Virus record (IMG/VR): IMGVR_UViG_3300026279_000223
Coordinates: 1-52,600 of that record
Length of the DNA stretch: 52,600 nucleotides
Reading direction: 5' to 3' (one strand)
DNA from: a virus
Lineage: Duplodnaviria > Caudoviricetes
Part shown: piece after piece, positions 3,676 to 51,139 of the stretch
Layout: every line of letters starts with the position of its first letter
Position numbering within the stretch: the first letter of the stretch is position 1
Position numbers and translations under genes: made by a program
Notes under the pieces: generated by a model
What the model was told of the DNA's origin: nothing
The model's input: the letters and a program-made list of their open reading frames with translations, nothing else
The model's database searches: none

Positions 3676-5142
3676 TTAGTCTTGTTCTTTGTCAACCGGT
3701 TTTAGTCTTTTACTTAATACAAACGTTCTATTAGGGTTGACACTAACATTCATTTGTCTCATTAAATCTCTATTGATTAATAAATCTGATCCTGATCTTG
3801 GTCTATTATCTAATCCTACTTCTACATCTTTATAGGTAAAACCATTAAAGGTTAAATCTAATAAAATTGTAGGTCTAATTTCTGAAGGCTCATCATCTGC
3901 ATTTGCTCTGAAGATTTTACTTTCACCAAATTTAGGTTTCTCATAAGTTTTATTATTATATTTCCATTTAACAATTTTCTTATCTGATAAAATTTCATCG
4001 GCATGTAAAGCACATGCTTTTGATCCGTTACCACTATCAAACTTAGCTCTAACTTTATCTACATCTGAAACATCAACAGTTTCTAACCAACCACATTCTA
4101 TAAGTGATTGTCTATCCCAATGACTTCTATCTTGAATATAATCAACAAGATACTCCATCATTTTTTCTCCATCTATTCTACCAGATGGTTCTGGATCAGA
4201 ATAATAATCTTTGTATTGGTAACCTTGATAGTCAGCACCTGATCCTGGACTACCATTGATTTCTAAAATGTATGGTTTTTTATTGTTTACTATGTGATCA
4301 ACTCCTACCATATATGCTTTTGAAGCTCTTGAAGCTTTTAAAACTAATTCGTGTTCTTCGTCACTTAAAATATAAGGCATTGCCTCAGCGCCTCTATGTG
4401 TATTTGATCTAAAGTCATATGAGCTGTGTATTCTTTTTGTACTTGCAATAATTTTGTTATCTAATACAAAAGTTCTTACATCAAACTTAACGTCCATAAA
4501 TTCTTGTATTAATAGTTCAGCATTTAATTTCCACATAGCCTGTACAGTTGCAACAAGACCCTCATAACTTTCAATTTTAATTACTCCGATACCTTGTGTA
4601 CCTGTTAATGTCTTTAAGATAAGTGGAAACTTACCACCAATTTGATCTAAACCTGTTCTTATATTATTCTCGTTAGATATAAAAGCAGTTCTAGGTGTAG
4701 GTATACCATTCTTTTCAAATAGTAAAGCTGATGTTAATTTATTGTCACAAGTCAGCATAGCTGCTCTTGTGTTTAACATAAATGATTGTGAATTTTGAAA
4801 GGCAGATATTAAAGAAAGGCCAGCTTCATCTTGACAAGCACCACCTCTTGTTATAACAACAGTATCTTTACCAACAAACTCATGCTCACCATTTTTACCG
4901 TCATAATTATAGACAGTTAATGTATTTTTTTCTTCGTCTTTACCTGTGATGATTGTACTATTGGTGTTTACTATAACACATTTAGTCTTTTGTTTTTTAC
5001 ACGCCTTTTCTATAAGTTCAACAGTTGAATCCTTGTTAGGTTTATCTGAATCATTTATAGTAAGTATCGCAACCGTAATAGGTTTATCTTTACGGCCTGG
5101 ATTCTGTTCGGTTATGTAATCTCTAAACTTTGGTATCTGCAT
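3676..5142 (-). CDS. rimK: RimK-family ATP-grasp ligase fused to a C-terminal RimB/retropepsin-like protease domain
   Basis: GTQGIGV, IQEF, FRSNTHRG, GVD, LEINGSPG ATP-grasp motifs; C-terminal CGWLE...AKFDSG...LLINRD. Confidence 0.88.
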   Translation of the reverse strand: MQIPKFRDYITEQNPGRKDKPITVAILTINDSDKPNKDSTVELIEKACKKQKTKCVIVNTNSTIITGKDEEKNTLTVYNYDGKNGEHEFVGKDTVVITRGGACQDEAGLSLISAFQNSQSFMLNTRAAMLTCDNKLTSALLFEKNGIPTPRTAFISNENNIRTGLDQIGGKFPLILKTLTGTQGIGVIKIESYEGLVATVQAMWKLNAELLIQEFMDVKFDVRTFVLDNKIIASTKRIHSSYDFRSNTHRGAEAMPYILSDEEHELVLKASRASKAYMVGVDHIVNNKKPYILEINGSPGSGADYQGYQYKDYYSDPEPSGRIDGEKMMEYLVDYIQDRSHWDRQSLIECGWLETVDVSDVDKVRAKFDSGNGSKACALHADEILSDKKIVKWKYNNKTYEKPKFGESKIFRANADDEPSEIRPTILLDLTFNGFTYKDVEVGLDNRPRSGSDLLINRDLMRQMNVSVNPNRTFVLSKRLKPVDKEQD

Positions 5143-5970: not shown

Positions 5971-6046
5971 TGGTGCCCTTTGTCCGAGTCGAACAGACGA
6001 CCTACTGATTACAAATCAGTTGCTCTACCAGCTGAGCTAAAAGGGC
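5971..6046 (-). tRNA. tRNA-Thr(UGU), canonical
   Basis: 76-nt cloverleaf: AGCTCAGCTGGTAGAGC D-arm, CTGAT-TTGTAA anticodon arm, GTTCGA T-loop, encoded CCA. Confidence 0.96.
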
Positions 6047-8438: not shown

Positions 8439-8512
8439 TGGAGCGGATACTTGGTACTGCCCCAAGTTCTAAAGATTGGAAATCTCTCATAATACTTTTA
8501 TACGATATCCGC
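8439..8512 (-). tRNA. tRNA-Gly(UCC) with non-canonical D- and T-loops
   Basis: GCGGATA/TATCCGC acceptor stem, U73 + CCA, AGAGA-TTTCCAA-TCTTT anticodon arm, CTTGG-GGCAGTA-CCAAG T-arm; D-loop lacks GG. Confidence 0.88.
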
Positions 8513-8519
8513 ATTATTG

Positions 8520-8548
8520 ATCCTATACTAGATCAATTAAAATGTCAA
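8520..8548 (-). promoter_or_regulatory. Sigma70-type promoter directly ahead of tRNA-Gly(UCC) and gp45
   Basis: TTGACA-N17-TAGGAT, 7 nt before tRNA position 1. Confidence 0.8.
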
Positions 8549-10707: not shown

Positions 10708-10914
10708 CTATAAATTTCTCTCACGTATTTTCTTTGCTTTTTTACTATTAGCAATCATTTCTTTTTTCTTCCTACGTTTTTTAGCACTTGGTTTTTCATA
10801 ATACATTTTTTCTTTATATGTTTTAAGAAAATTATCTTTTAAATATTTTCTTTTTAAAACTCTTAAAGCCTGTTCTACGTTATTGTTTCTTACTTCTATT
10901 TTTATTCCAGCCAT
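10708..10914 (-). CDS. rpsU: Ribosomal protein bS21
   Basis: IEVRNNNVEQALRVLKRK...YYEKPSAKKRRKK. Confidence 0.92.
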   Translation of the reverse strand: MAGIKIEVRNNNVEQALRVLKRKYLKDNFLKTYKEKMYYEKPSAKKRRKKKEMIANSKKAKKIRERNL

Positions 10915-14729: not shown

Positions 14730-16061
14730 TTATCTTCCTACTTGATTTAGGTACTTTCCTTTGCAATCTTCCCAATTCAAGTAAATCAAATCATCATAAA
14801 AATGTGATTCTTTAGAATATCTGTCTGTCTGTAATAAATTCTTTATTCTTTTAGAGGCATGTTTTTCTTTCCACACTTTAACTAATGCCTCTGTAGACGA
14901 ATCAAAACGTTTCTTTAAACCATCGTTTTTAACTTCGCCTCTTAAATACTCATAAGTGTTCTCATATAATCTTGCAAAATAGATACCTCTGGCATGATCA
15001 GTTTTAATTAACTTTTTATCTATACCCATTTTAGAATAGGTAAACATATATGATCTATTCTTGTGGTCTCTTTTTAATGGTTGGCCGTTAGCTCTTGTTG
15101 CTTCATACCATTCAAAGTATTTTCTAGTATGATTTTTCTTTAACCATTGTTTAATTAAATTCTTTGTTTCTGGTTGTGGTTCATATGATACGGAACCCAT
15201 AGTGAAACCCATACGTTTCCAGTATTTTAAACCATCATATTGACTTAAAGTATTTGCTTTCGCTTTACCATATAAAGATGTTGTGGTAACACCAACTAAC
15301 TTGTCACCATATTTCTCTTCCCAAATTCTTTGTACGTCATCTGATAAACATAGATATGCTAATAGTTTACCACCAGTATAACTATAACCTAAAGGTTGTG
15401 TTGGTACAATAGAGGAACCAATAGCAGTATGATTAATCATACCACCAAACGTTTTACTATGTCTATCCCAACCAATGGCACTGTCTCTTGGAGTTAAATC
15501 CATAAAGTCACCAGATATACAAATCACACCTAAATGTTTGCCTGATTTATTATCATTTACATTAAAGAATAACTGTCTACCAATATTACTATTGTTTTTC
15601 ATGGTAGACAAAAATGTTCTTAATGTGTTCCAGTTTTCAGATAGTTGTTGAGTTCTTACTGCTTTGCCGTTAAATCTTTTTGTAGTATCATCTGTATATT
15701 CTAATACAGGTTCCAGTTTATCATAGTCTTCAGGTGATTCTGGAATCCAGATATTATTTCTAACAGTATCTATTTGATTTTTTTGTGTAGGTTCTTTTAG
15801 TATATTTTCTGTACCATAGAGAGTAGTTGATTCTACTGTAGGATATTTTCTATGTACTTCTTGCCACTTTTGAAATAATGTATACTCTTGTACGGTCATT
15901 TTAGACACGTATCCAAGGTCTTTTTCTATAGCTTCTTTTAATACTTTCTCATCAACATCTTCTATTTTAGAGATATCGTTTTCATCTTGAAATTGTTTCC
16001 ACTTCTTTTCAACACCCTCTAAATCTTGTTTAGCGTGTATGTCAAAGTCATCTTTAGTCAT
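14730..16061 (-). CDS. DUF4338/Druantia DruA-like protein
   Basis: LTPRDSAIGW, PLGYSYTGGKLLAYL, VTTTSLYGK...SQYDGL, GFTMGS resemble DruA-family motifs as recalled. Confidence 0.7.
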   Translation of the reverse strand: MTKDDFDIHAKQDLEGVEKKWKQFQDENDISKIEDVDEKVLKEAIEKDLGYVSKMTVQEYTLFQKWQEVHRKYPTVESTTLYGTENILKEPTQKNQIDTVRNNIWIPESPEDYDKLEPVLEYTDDTTKRFNGKAVRTQQLSENWNTLRTFLSTMKNNSNIGRQLFFNVNDNKSGKHLGVICISGDFMDLTPRDSAIGWDRHSKTFGGMINHTAIGSSIVPTQPLGYSYTGGKLLAYLCLSDDVQRIWEEKYGDKLVGVTTTSLYGKAKANTLSQYDGLKYWKRMGFTMGSVSYEPQPETKNLIKQWLKKNHTRKYFEWYEATRANGQPLKRDHKNRSYMFTYSKMGIDKKLIKTDHARGIYFARLYENTYEYLRGEVKNDGLKKRFDSSTEALVKVWKEKHASKRIKNLLQTDRYSKESHFYDDLIYLNWEDCKGKYLNQVGR

Positions 16062-16101: not shown

Positions 16102-16848
16102 TTACAGTTTTTCCATTGCTTTCTTATGTTTTTCGTAGGCTTTCATCTGTTTAGCGGCTTTCTTATAAGCCATATCTAACTTCAATTTAGATACACCATC
16201 TGTAAAATTCTTGCCTAATATATGATCGTATTCATGTTGGAATATTCTACTAATCATACCATCAAGGTGGCCTTCTCTTAATTGTCCATCTTCATCTTCG
16301 TATTTGACAACTACTTTTCTAGGCCTTTCTATTGATAAGAATACAAAAGGAAAAGTTAAACAGCCTTCTTTCATTACTACTGTTTCCTCACTTTTTGTTA
16401 TTATCATTGGATTAAAACAAGCCATCTTTAACCCTTTTTCTATATCTGGATGATCGCCTATCGTAAACATATTGAAAGGTAATCCAACCTGATTACAGGT
16501 TAAACCTATTCCACCATATTTCTTCATTGTTTTGAACATGGCGTCTGCTAGTTCTTTTCTATCTTTAAACTTCATTTCACAATCAGGATAATCTTCTTCT
16601 AACATATCATCACTGAAAGGTGCTATTGCTGAATTGACTCTAGGGTCTCTCGGTGGTACCAGTTTTAGGGTATTTTTATCCTCTAATACGGGTGTTTCCG
16701 TCTCCTTAATTTTCTCAACCTTTTCTTGCTTTTTTGGCTTATTTTTAAAGCCTTGAGCCTTGTCAATATAGTCATTTTGCTTTTTCGGTAACTTGTCTAT
16801 TTTACCTTTATTACCGCCAAGCATTACATTTTTTTGTGTACTTCCCAT
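16102..16848 (-). CDS. def: Peptide deformylase with Lys-rich N-terminal extension
   Basis: GGIGLTCNQVG, EGCLT, QHEYDH. Confidence 0.95.
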   Translation of the reverse strand: MGSTQKNVMLGGNKGKIDKLPKKQNDYIDKAQGFKNKPKKQEKVEKIKETETPVLEDKNTLKLVPPRDPRVNSAIAPFSDDMLEEDYPDCEMKFKDRKELADAMFKTMKKYGGIGLTCNQVGLPFNMFTIGDHPDIEKGLKMACFNPMIITKSEETVVMKEGCLTFPFVFLSIERPRKVVVKYEDEDGQLREGHLDGMISRIFQHEYDHILGKNFTDGVSKLKLDMAYKKAAKQMKAYEKHKKAMEKL

Positions 16849-18766: not shown

Positions 18767-19802
18767 TGGCCTCCGTATATAGTTCTTTTGCAAATTCTTT
18801 TAATTTATGTTTATCTAACTCTGTATCTACCTGATCAATATAGTTACCTAAAAATGTTAGTGTATCTTCTCCTTGATCTATAGTATCTACTTTTACTGTT
18901 TGTGTAATATCATTTGTATCTTCATTGATAATCAATTCATGTACATTGGTATTGTTATAAAATCTTTCTACTAGATTACCATACATTTCTGGATTAGTTT
19001 TTCTGTTTACAAATAGTTTTACAAAACAATTCTCATAAGAAGATAAATCTAAATTGTTATAGTTTTCTTTTGTATCATCATATACTAATTTTTTAAATAT
19101 TGGTAAAGGGTTCTCTATTCGTTCTAACTCTCTTGTATCTGTATCAAATATATGAAAACCTTTTGGACAATTATAGTCTGACCACATAATTTGATATTGA
19201 GTACCTAGATAAAATATATGTCCGTCATCTGATTTCTTATGAAAATGACCAGATAATACTTTTTCAAATCTTCTAAATTGTTCTCTTTCAAGTCCTTGTT
19301 CGTTTACTACTCCTCTATGCATTTCAAAGCCTTTTACTTCTAAATGACCAAAGGCAATTTGTGATGTAGAGTTGTCTAATTTATATAAAGTATCTTCCAT
19401 ATTGTCTTCACATATCCATGGTATAAACAATATATCTAAACCACCAAGAGTAACCTCTGTTGCTCTTGTATATATTTTAACTTTACCTAGATTTAAATTT
19501 TCTATAGCATTTACTTCGTTAGTATTTTTGTAATAGGTATCGTGATTACCTAATATAACGTGAGTATCTATATCTAATTCTTCTAGTTTATCCCAAAACT
19601 TTTTCTTAAAATTGTGGGCTGTGTTATGGTTAATAAACTTACGTCTATCAACTACGTCACCTAAATGTACTAAACATTTTATATCGTTATCTTTAAGATA
19701 AGGAAAAAACTGTTCCTCATAAAACTTATTTTGATAATTTATAAAGTGTGGAGAATCATTACGGCAACCAAAGTGTGTATCATTTAGTAGCGCTATCTTC
19801 AT
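18759..19802 (-). CDS. gp47: Recombination nuclease subunit (Mre11/SbcD-like)
   Basis: NDTHFG, HLGDVVDRRK, GNHD, SGHFH. Confidence 0.97.
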   Translation of the reverse strand: MKIALLNDTHFGCRNDSPHFINYQNKFYEEQFFPYLKDNDIKCLVHLGDVVDRRKFINHNTAHNFKKKFWDKLEELDIDTHVILGNHDTYYKNTNEVNAIENLNLGKVKIYTRATEVTLGGLDILFIPWICEDNMEDTLYKLDNSTSQIAFGHLEVKGFEMHRGVVNEQGLEREQFRRFEKVLSGHFHKKSDDGHIFYLGTQYQIMWSDYNCPKGFHIFDTDTRELERIENPLPIFKKLVYDDTKENYNNLDLSSYENCFVKLFVNRKTNPEMYGNLVERFYNNTNVHELIINEDTNDITQTVKVDTIDQGEDTLTFLGNYIDQVDTELDKHKLKEFAKELYTEASE

Positions 19803-20364
19803 AATTTTCAAAAAAATAATCTAAACTATTCTTACTTGTTCTTTTCTTCCTTTTCTTTTTACTTTGTTTAATTTCTTCGGCAATCTTCTCTTGTGAATCC
19901 ATAGGTAAATTCTTTTGTAAGTACTCTGTCATCTGGTTTTTAAAGTCTCTATCGTCACCAGGTTGGAGAGCAAAATCATCTAAATTGGATTTACTTATAA
20001 GTTTGTGTTTGATTGTCACTTGCTTTTTCTCTTTTTGTATTCTACGTATAAAAGCATAGTAGATTATTTGAGTAAAGTAAGCGAAAGGATTATTTGATTT
20101 TTTACCATCAAAGTTGTCAAGGTATTGTAGACAGTTTTCTATACCATCTGAAATCATGTCATCTTTAAAGGTGTAATTAATGAAATTAGGTCTATATGAG
20201 AGGTGATTGGCAATCTTCAAAAAACATGATCCAAGGTAGTTTCCTACTGGTGGTTTATCTTGTTTTAATCTCTTTGCTTTACGTACAGATTTTCTGTACT
20301 TTATCATCGCCTCCAAAAACTCTTTGTTATTTACATAATGTTCTTTTTTTGTTTTTGTATTCAT
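19780..20364 (-). CDS. gp55: Late-transcription sigma factor
   Basis: HYVNNKEF, NFINYT, DMISDGIENC, NPFAYFTQI, AFIRRIQKEKKQ. Confidence 0.97.
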   Translation of the reverse strand: MNTKTKKEHYVNNKEFLEAMIKYRKSVRKAKRLKQDKPPVGNYLGSCFLKIANHLSYRPNFINYTFKDDMISDGIENCLQYLDNFDGKKSNNPFAYFTQIIYYAFIRRIQKEKKQVTIKHKLISKSNLDDFALQPGDDRDFKNQMTEYLQKNLPMDSQEKIAEEIKQSKKKRKKRTSKNSLDYFFENYEDSATK

Positions 20365-20370
20365 AATATT

Positions 20371-20399
20371 AATATACTACAGTTTGTGTTTTTTGTCAA
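20371..20399 (-). promoter_or_regulatory. Sigma70-type promoter of gp55, predicting a leaderless mRNA
   Basis: TTGACA-N17-TATATT-N6-ATG. Confidence 0.75.
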
Positions 20400-20411: not shown

Positions 20412-20486
20412 TGGAGCGGGTGAAGAATTTCGCAATCTCAACCTTATCGTTGGCAACGATACGCTCTACTTTTGAGCTACACCCGC
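20412..20486 (-). tRNA. tRNA-Gly(GCC) with non-canonical D- and T-loops
   Basis: GCGGGTG/CACCCGC acceptor stem, U73 + CCA, GCTC-AAAAGTA-GAGC D-arm, TATCG-TTGCCAA-CGATA anticodon arm, GAGAT-TGCGAAA-TTCTT T-arm. Confidence 0.85.
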
Positions 20487-20488
20487 CT

Positions 20489-20515
20489 AAAAAAAATTTC
20501 GGTTTCAGCCGAAAT
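20489..20515 (-). terminator. Intrinsic terminator immediately upstream of tRNA-Gly(GCC)
   Basis: ATTTCGG-CTGAAA-CCGAAAT followed by a T run. Confidence 0.7.
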
Positions 20516-20520
20516 CAGCA

Positions 20521-20548
20521 TTGACTTTTTTGGAAAAATATGTATAAT
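20521..20548 (+). promoter_or_regulatory. Plus-strand (antisense) sigma70-type promoter
   Basis: TTGACT-N16-TATAAT pointing into the 3' end of ORF 20595..21026; no plus-strand gene follows. Confidence 0.5.
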
Positions 20549-20594: not shown

Positions 20595-21026
20595 TTAATG
20601 TATGGTTCCTTCATCATCATCATCAAACAATCTTTCATCAAAAATCTCATTTATCTTCTTATTATCTTTAGTGGAAAACTTCATCATTGAAGGCGTTCTT
20701 TTGTTGTCTTTTGCCAAAGGAATATCTTCATATGTATCAACAACACCAAGATAACTTCTTCTCATATCTTCATTAGCATTTGTTATGGTCATTATCTTAT
20801 CTTTTGGAATAGTAATTTGTTCATCGTTAGTATAGGCCGTCCAACGAATCAAAGCAATATAATCTCTAAAACCCGATACCGTTATTTGTGGTACGTATTT
20901 TATCTGCAACGGCTTTTCTACATTGATTGTTTTATTTGTGGGATCTAATTGTCTTTTAGTAAAAGCACAAGAACAAACAATATCGTCTCCGTTTACCAAC
21001 TTGATAATTTTAATGTTATTATCCAT
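20595..21026 (-). CDS. Conserved T4-like hypothetical protein upstream of gp55, possible Sm-like fold
   Basis: IKIIKLVNGDDIVC; C-terminal DDDEGTIH; TAAATA-N5-ATG. Confidence 0.75.
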   Translation of the reverse strand: MDNNIKIIKLVNGDDIVCSCAFTKRQLDPTNKTINVEKPLQIKYVPQITVSGFRDYIALIRWTAYTNDEQITIPKDKIMTITNANEDMRRSYLGVVDTYEDIPLAKDNKRTPSMMKFSTKDNKKINEIFDERLFDDDDEGTIH

Positions 21027-51037: not shown

Positions 51038-51139
51038 GGCCTAAAAGCGTAGTGGGAAAGTGACGTGGAATTCGTTCAGATTACTTGATACGGTTATACT
51101 CCGAATGCCACCTAGGTCATATAACGAGCAAGGAGACTC
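51038..51139 (+). ncRNA. Cobalamin riboswitch, class IIa (AdoCbl-variant, env8HyCbl-like)
   Basis: GGCCTA/TAGGTC closing stem, AGTGGGAAAG, GCCAC B12-box, loop TTATACTCC complementary to the SD hairpin GAGCAAGGAGACTC just before the ATG. Confidence 0.93.

Follow-up and report, generated by a model that had tools for sequence, protein, structure and literature searches.

A covarying A18/G55 elbow in a phage tRNA-Gly(GCC), a widespread and under-annotated alternative to G18/U55 that may evade T-loop nucleases

The G18/U55 pair of tRNA is regarded as almost invariant. The staphylococcal non-proteinogenic tRNA-Gly species NP1, NP2 and NEW, which are Fem substrates, are additional tRNA-Gly whose D and T loops are altered, and the known cases of phage tRNA escape mostly involve changes to the anticodon arm. 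EF-Tu reads the T stem rather than the elbow, and G19/C56 is read by RNase P and the ribosome. According to the parts of the sources consulted, the pairs G49-U65 and G51-C63, which are the proteinogenic, EF-Tu-binding determinants, are absent in staphylococcal non-proteinogenic tRNA-Gly (PMC12256121), and the Cash Schlafen nuclease CbCash cleaves 5' of U55 in the T-loop UUC motif, cleavage being abolished by single U54 or U55 mutations (PMC13462974). Canonical phage tRNA-Gly (of T4, the cyanophages and the loci L730 and L732) have the same identity elements as the tRNA-Gly(GCC) studied here (the focal tRNA) and in L730 and L732 lie in the same genomic slot, but they have G18/U55 (C55 in L730) where the focal tRNA has A18/G55.

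The window, that is, the whole 52.6 kb stretch of DNA analyzed, is a 29% complete fragment of a marine T4-like myovirus. Its host is probably SAR11-like, given that Mosig and HTVC008M, both phages of SAR11, are its nearest relatives among isolates. The tRNA genes of the window and their immediate surroundings are the following.

5971..6046, minus strand: tRNA-Thr(UGU) with canonical G18/U55, called by ARAGORN and Rfam; internal control
8439..8512, minus strand: partner tRNA-Gly(UCC) with A18/G55, upstream of a gp45-like gene
8520..8548, minus strand: sigma70-like promoter (TTGACA-17-TAGGAT) immediately preceding tRNA-Gly(UCC), a consensus match only
19780..20364, minus strand: gp55-like late sigma factor gene, a landmark for the focal tRNA's orthologous slot
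20371..20399, minus strand: sigma70-like promoter between the focal tRNA and the gp55-like sigma gene, a consensus match only
20412..20486, minus strand: focal tRNA-Gly(GCC) with the A18/G55 elbow, from cloverleaf parse and Rfam
20489..20515, minus strand: terminator-like hairpin and U8 run, separated by 2 nt from the focal tRNA downstream of it

The focal phage gene encodes an intact tRNA-Gly(GCC) in which a covarying A18/G55 takes the place of G18/U55. Its cloverleaf, parsed on the identical sequence in IMG/VR loci, has complete acceptor (7/7), D (4/4) and anticodon (5/5) stems and a T stem of 4/5, in which U53-U61 is the sole unpaired position. The D-loop AAAAGUA provides A18 and G19, and the T-loop UGCGAAA provides U54, G55 and C56. 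As expected of a tRNA-Gly, the gene has an NCC-anticodon cloverleaf (here GCC), G1-C72, C2-G71, U73 and an encoded CCA; it also retains both G49-U65 and G51-C63. Rfam RF00005 matches it at 20415-20486 on the minus strand (54.2 bits, E 5.8e-9), default ARAGORN makes no call at 20412-20486, and stand-alone folding is weak (z -2.2) and, since it does not recover the full cloverleaf, uninformative. The partner UCC gene, 11.9 kb away and called by neither Rfam nor ARAGORN, has a D-loop identical to that of the focal tRNA and the T-loop GGCAGUA, in which U54/A58 is also replaced, by G54/G58. With C49-G65 and U51-A63 in its T stem, it lacks both G49-U65 and G51-C63. The two genes are identical at 37 of 75 aligned positions. 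The description in the earlier note, of a U53-U61 mismatch beside otherwise perfect stems and of two dissimilar Gly tRNAs some 12 kb apart that both adopt A18/G55 and keep G19/C56 while tRNA-Thr is canonical, is thus correct.

We then consider the coupling of positions 18 and 55 across viral tRNA-Gly. IMG/VR was scanned with tRNA-Gly patterns in which G55 (133 stretches, 12 of 64 parts), A18 (134 stretches, 16 of 64 parts) or U55 (124 stretches, 1 of 64 parts) was fixed, and matches were retained when at least 17 of 21 stem pairs were formed. A18 is present in 94 of 94 distinct G55 tRNA-Gly (93 by script, one by eye) and G18 in 122 of 123 distinct U55 tRNA-Gly, counts that come from related sequences and so do not represent independent events. 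All 77 A18 matches have G55 and none has another base at 55; this set draws on loci from the G55 scan as well as the A18 scan, and only its zero exceptions are independent. Positions 54 and 58 covary too in the 94 G55 genes (G/G 47, U/A 24, A/U 16, U/U 5, C/A 2), and this family is without U55 throughout and without U54 in 65 of its 94 members. We estimate that some 660 G55 and 11,000 U55 stretches in the viral set match the patterns, putting G55 at about 6%. Default ARAGORN recovers all 123 U55 tRNA-Gly, against 27 of 94 with G55.

The slot upstream of gp55 offers the clearest comparison. Locus L732 has a canonical tRNA-Gly(GCC) here and L036 an A18/G55 one, the two differing only at positions 18, 52 and 55 within conserved flanks. 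L730 combines G18 with C55, and the slot is empty in L728 and L729. At the other site, the UCC/ACC gene preceding gp45 has the rewired form at all pelagiphage-like loci in which it was detected. Because 18 and 55 covary almost without exception, the swap reflects more than chance, and sequence comparison, including the switch between L732 and L036 at one locus, supports selection rather than decay. This had been argued earlier from the window itself, and the covariation check proposed at that time reveals the coupling. By blastn, homology to the focal tRNA is found in 14 isolate phage records, and the five that were inspected are all canonical. In one phage (L015:10001-10153) a canonical and a rewired tRNA-Gly(UCC) adjoin.

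A18/G55 is neither Gly-specific nor phage-specific. A viral scan with A18 fixed and the anticodon left free gave 121 stretches and 87 distinct sequences, 80 of which passed the stem filter; G55 is found in 75 of these 80, which rules out restriction to Gly, as they cover 13 amino acids with Gly accounting for 9 of the 75. Arrays rich in G55, with tRNAs of all identities, are located as follows.

L081:5650-13901: phage array, G55 in 33 of 34 default ARAGORN calls
L807:6525-16678: phage array, G55 in 32 of 35 default ARAGORN calls
L320:5128-7381: planctomycete array, G55 in 9 of 16 default ARAGORN calls

A further phage array, L806, has G55 in 8 of 25 calls. Gly alone is rewired in L049, L152, L065, L072 and L080, loci that were chosen through their Gly, and none of the 118 viral Thr(UGU) genes that have U54 carries G55. 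A scan of GTDB (120 stretches, 3 of 64 parts) gave real matches mostly in Streptomyces, also in Patescibacteria and a few others, and none titled Pelagibacter. The pattern was not found in 401 Alphaproteobacteria genomes, searched without a positive control and with SAR11 members not distinguished, and within that set the earlier concern that host tRNA-Gly genes share these loops is not borne out. The cellular genes are found at these loci.

L345, L369, L378, L383, L342: Patescibacteria A18/G55 tRNA-Gly(GCC), part of a Val-Phe-Gly cluster at each of the four loci scanned
L309, L323, L348, L433, L439, L446: Streptomyces extra tRNA-Gly(UCC), near position 6001 in L309, L323 and L348

In 5 of 5 Patescibacteria MAGs, which may be incomplete, the A18/G55 gene was the sole Gly(GCC) recovered, which suggests that this elbow is able to decode. 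In 5 of 5 Streptomyces genomes an A18/G55 Gly(UCC) with A51-U63 comes in addition to the canonical UCC gene and is probably non-ribosomal. These extra genes have a bulged T stem, adjoin the canonical Gly(GCC) in one to four tandem copies and are missed by ARAGORN; an unusual Streptomyces lividans tRNA-Gly was reportedly noted in the 1990s. A glycine bridge is present in Streptomyces peptidoglycan, and the extra tRNA is a candidate cell-wall glycyl donor. The earlier proposal of a specialized class of phage Gly tRNAs thus holds as far as an A18/G55 class exists, and fails in confining it to Gly and to phages, given the 13 amino acids, the whole arrays and the cellular tRNA-Gly.

We put at roughly 0.5 the probability that the focal tRNA still feeds glycine to the ribosome and that the swap would remove a T-loop UUC nuclease site. 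The A18/G55 pair would replace the G18/U55 contact with the L-shape kept and G19/C56 retained, host GlyRS would charge the tRNA, EF-Tu would bind it through the retained G49-U65 and G51-C63, and GGC and GGU would be decoded. That the focal tRNA decodes is likely because both EF-Tu determinants are kept. Selection would come from host nucleases that read the T-loop and whose required site is removed by G55, a step in which we place less confidence than in decoding. The base needed by the Cash nuclease is indeed missing in the focal tRNA, with G55 replacing U55, and escape from nucleases that need T-loop U54/U55 appears to be the best-supported reason for the swap. The likeness to nuclease-resistant phage tRNAs lies in a phage variant without the base that a host tRNase needs (U55, often also U54), and the difference is that those known mostly alter the anticodon arm, whereas here the elbow is altered and the matching nuclease is putative. 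The near-whole conversion of the L081 and L807 arrays fits T-loop nuclease pressure. Against escape, only Gly is rewired in the SAR11-phage clade, and a broad T-loop nuclease would not explain the canonical Thr in the same genome. The suggestion of defence-resistant tRNAs in the earlier note gains indirect support from the part of PMC13462974 consulted. Further points against the reading as a whole are that GGC is little used (115 of the 987 Gly codons in 41 ORFs of the window, where GGU accounts for 588), that the Streptomyces A18/G55 copy is an extra, probably non-ribosomal one, and that the terminator-like hairpin, similar to a hairpin and U run in three sister loci, stands just before the gene. 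In the literature searched on phage tRNA escape from T-loop nucleases no A18/G55 elbow route was found, and the elbow offers a testable general escape route from such nucleases.

A possible though doubtful alternative is that the rewired Gly tRNAs are glycyl donors kept off EF-Tu, feeding a phage DUF4338 GNAT that would glycylate DNA adenines in a Mom-like manner. The features concerned are these.

14730..16061, minus strand: DUF4338/DruA-like protein of 443 aa (PF14236 DruA, E 3e-16) with a predicted GNAT fold
L459:7783-7852 (Mosig, MT647606.1): rewired tRNA-Gly(ACC), unannotated
KC465899.1:91140-91209 (HTVC008M): rewired tRNA-Gly(ACC), unannotated

No Fem gene was found in the window, and the transferase search proposed earlier yielded in its place this DUF4338 protein, a candidate Mom-like, Gly-tRNA-dependent DNA-modifying enzyme. 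Its model (pLDDT 78.6) has GNATs as top structural matches (Z 8.0-9.1), among them Mom 8BV8 (Z 8.2, rmsd 3.7, 163 aligned; in a second comparison Z 8.4, rmsd 4.5, 185 aligned), which is merely tied in Z with other GNATs but has the longest or joint-longest alignment among the top rows. An Atlas match (GNAT-phage-like, 0.84) serves as a lead only. Foldseek gave no match at E <= 0.001, HHalign to single-sequence Mom gave 0.2% and no signal, sequence searches against the PDB gave no match, and the Pfam Mom family PF25680 has no match in the window and passed its cut-off in 0 of 25 records. Mom is placed in the GNAT superfamily (PMC7824862, in part), and a cyanophage homologue of the window protein (30% identity) is called structurally Mom-like (PMC12801897, in part). 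The likeness to Mu Mom (PF25680, PDB 8BV8) thus consists of the GNAT fold, a long structural overlap and a phage gene in a DNA-metabolism region; unlike Mu Mom, the 443-aa protein is PF14236-like, and its activity is putative. Mom uses Gly-tRNA-Gly, and all E. coli tRNA-Gly isoacceptors support it, which renders a special donor unnecessary (PMC13219725, in part); the main text of that paper, as far as consulted, mentions neither DruA nor DUF4338 nor encoded tRNAs.

The tRNA data speak for a donor chiefly in the partner class. A-U or U-A at 51:63 is found in 54 of 94 G55 versus 3 of 123 U55 tRNA-Gly, and an ACC anticodon in 17 of 94 versus 1 of 123; in loci with T4-like markers, A/U at 51:63 occurs in 12 of 13 ACC, 19 of 25 UCC and 2 of 7 GCC genes. 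We did not accept the ACC anticodon as proof of non-decoding, GGU being the commonest phage Gly codon. The extra Streptomyces copy with A51-U63 also favors a donor. Like the staphylococcal non-proteinogenic tRNAs, the partner UCC/ACC class is without G49-U65 and G51-C63 (PMC12256121, in part); unlike them, the focal GCC tRNA keeps both T-stem pairs, and the phage tRNAs keep G19 and form a compensatory A18/G55. The donor reading therefore fits the partner class better, where we hold it with more confidence, and is weakened for the focal tRNA, which retains both determinants and has canonical counterparts in the same slot of sister phages; the non-ribosomal donor of the earlier note survives to the same extent.

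Genomic association is divided. DUF4338 homologues directly follow gp44 in 9 of 10 cyanophages viewed, near the annotated dam site of S-ShM2 and S-RIM8, and in L027, L054 and L117 it is adjacent to the tRNA-Gly or no more than 400 nt away. Our comparison covered 22 complete isolates, of which 12 were picked from 31 records with a DUF4338 homologue and 10 from a separate list of 60: tRNA-Gly is present in 11 of 12 positive versus 3 of 10 negative isolates (Fisher p 0.006, ignoring kinship and total tRNA number), counted on hand-picked, related genomes. Both SAR11 myophage isolates have a rewired tRNA-Gly together with the DUF4338 gene, and these two are the only ones of the 22 with a rewired (ACC) gene; of the ten DUF4338-positive cyanophages, nine have canonical tRNA-Gly and one has none. 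Among 19 DUF4338-positive contigs, all fragments, four have rewired tRNA-Gly, six canonical only and nine no tRNA-Gly, and conversely the DUF4338 gene is found in 8 of 34 rewired-Gly contigs and in 0 of 3 at >=90% completeness. A DUF4338 gene may thus favor carriage of tRNA-Gly, to judge from gene content, with rewiring not required. Strict coupling of rewiring and DUF4338 is ruled out by the isolate and contig counts outside the SAR11-phage clade.

For the SAR11 myophages themselves we tentatively consider, as rather unlikely, a two-part DNA-glycylation system in which a Mom-like DUF4338 GNAT would be served by the phage's own non-proteinogenic tRNA-Gly(UCC/ACC), built on an A18/G55 elbow that in other phages would act as whole-array armour against T-loop nucleases. 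If true, the phage tRNA would be a dedicated aminoacyl donor encoded by a virus, one that has escaped annotation in two cultured isolates. Together with the neighboring Mom-like GNAT, it makes testable the idea that a phage provides its own glycyl donor for modifying DNA. The Mosig tRNA-Gly(ACC) site is annotated as a 31-aa hypothetical CDS, and HTVC008M has two DUF4338-like genes. In the cyanophages L461 and L463-L470 a DUF4338-like gene lies between gp44 and gp62, and in L472 and L476 (S-ShM2 and S-RIM8) dam is annotated just after gp44.

It is unlikely that A18/G55 is simply an equal elbow, needing no pseudouridine 55 or Gm18, that spread by drift or by a mild benefit where modification enzymes are limiting and has no role in conflict. 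Such a reading would account for both elbow states at one locus in close relatives, with L728 and L729 lacking the gene, and for A18/G55 as the apparent housekeeping form in small-genome Patescibacteria; artificial T-loop libraries, too, reportedly tolerated purine swaps at these positions. It is opposed by the single phages in which 33 of 34 or 32 of 35 tRNAs have been converted, a change for which a genome-wide pressure is needed, and by the invariably rewired pre-gp45 gene of the pelagiphage-like loci. That the focal gene is a pseudo-tRNA in decay or owes its form to a sequencing error, a reading for which the ARAGORN miss, the U53-U61 mismatch and the weak stand-alone folding could be cited, is most improbable and largely refuted by the recurrence of its D- and T-arm motifs in 7 IMG/VR stretches, by its unchanged sequence in one metatranscriptome contig (which may be DNA and is no proof of transcription), by the recurrence of U53-U61 in phage Lys, Thr, Val and Pro tRNAs and by stem covariation over 94 distinct relatives. 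Three of four metatranscriptome runs are without coverage of the focal tRNA body.

The focal tRNA, then, is ordinary in identity, and its A18/G55 elbow is a widespread, under-annotated alternative: a natural substitute for the near-invariant G18/U55 that the standard finder mostly misses. Full-text literature searches, which covered mainly recent, freely accessible papers, returned no description of a natural A18/G55 elbow, and those on pelagiphage tRNA-Gly or on DUF4338 with Mom returned no account of it; the parts of PMC4810233 and PMC8421152 consulted contain nothing on positions 18 or 55.

Some further features of the window are recorded here. On the minus strand it encodes translation-related auxiliary proteins, namely a RimK-like ATP-grasp ligase (3676-5142), ribosomal protein S21 (10708-10914) and a peptide deformylase (16102-16848), and, after the DNA polymerase, a 161-aa ORF (34-519) with a weak GNAT match (E 0.039). 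An AdoCbl-II riboswitch lies at 51038-51118 on the plus strand (69.6 bits). The stem of the hairpin at 20489-20515 (minus strand) appears changed in a compensatory manner in L730. A near-perfect sigma70-like promoter at 20521-20548 on the plus strand points away from the focal tRNA and runs antisense to the ORF at 20595-21026; its -10 region is kept in L730, L732 and L036, and it could possibly give rise to a small antisense RNA.
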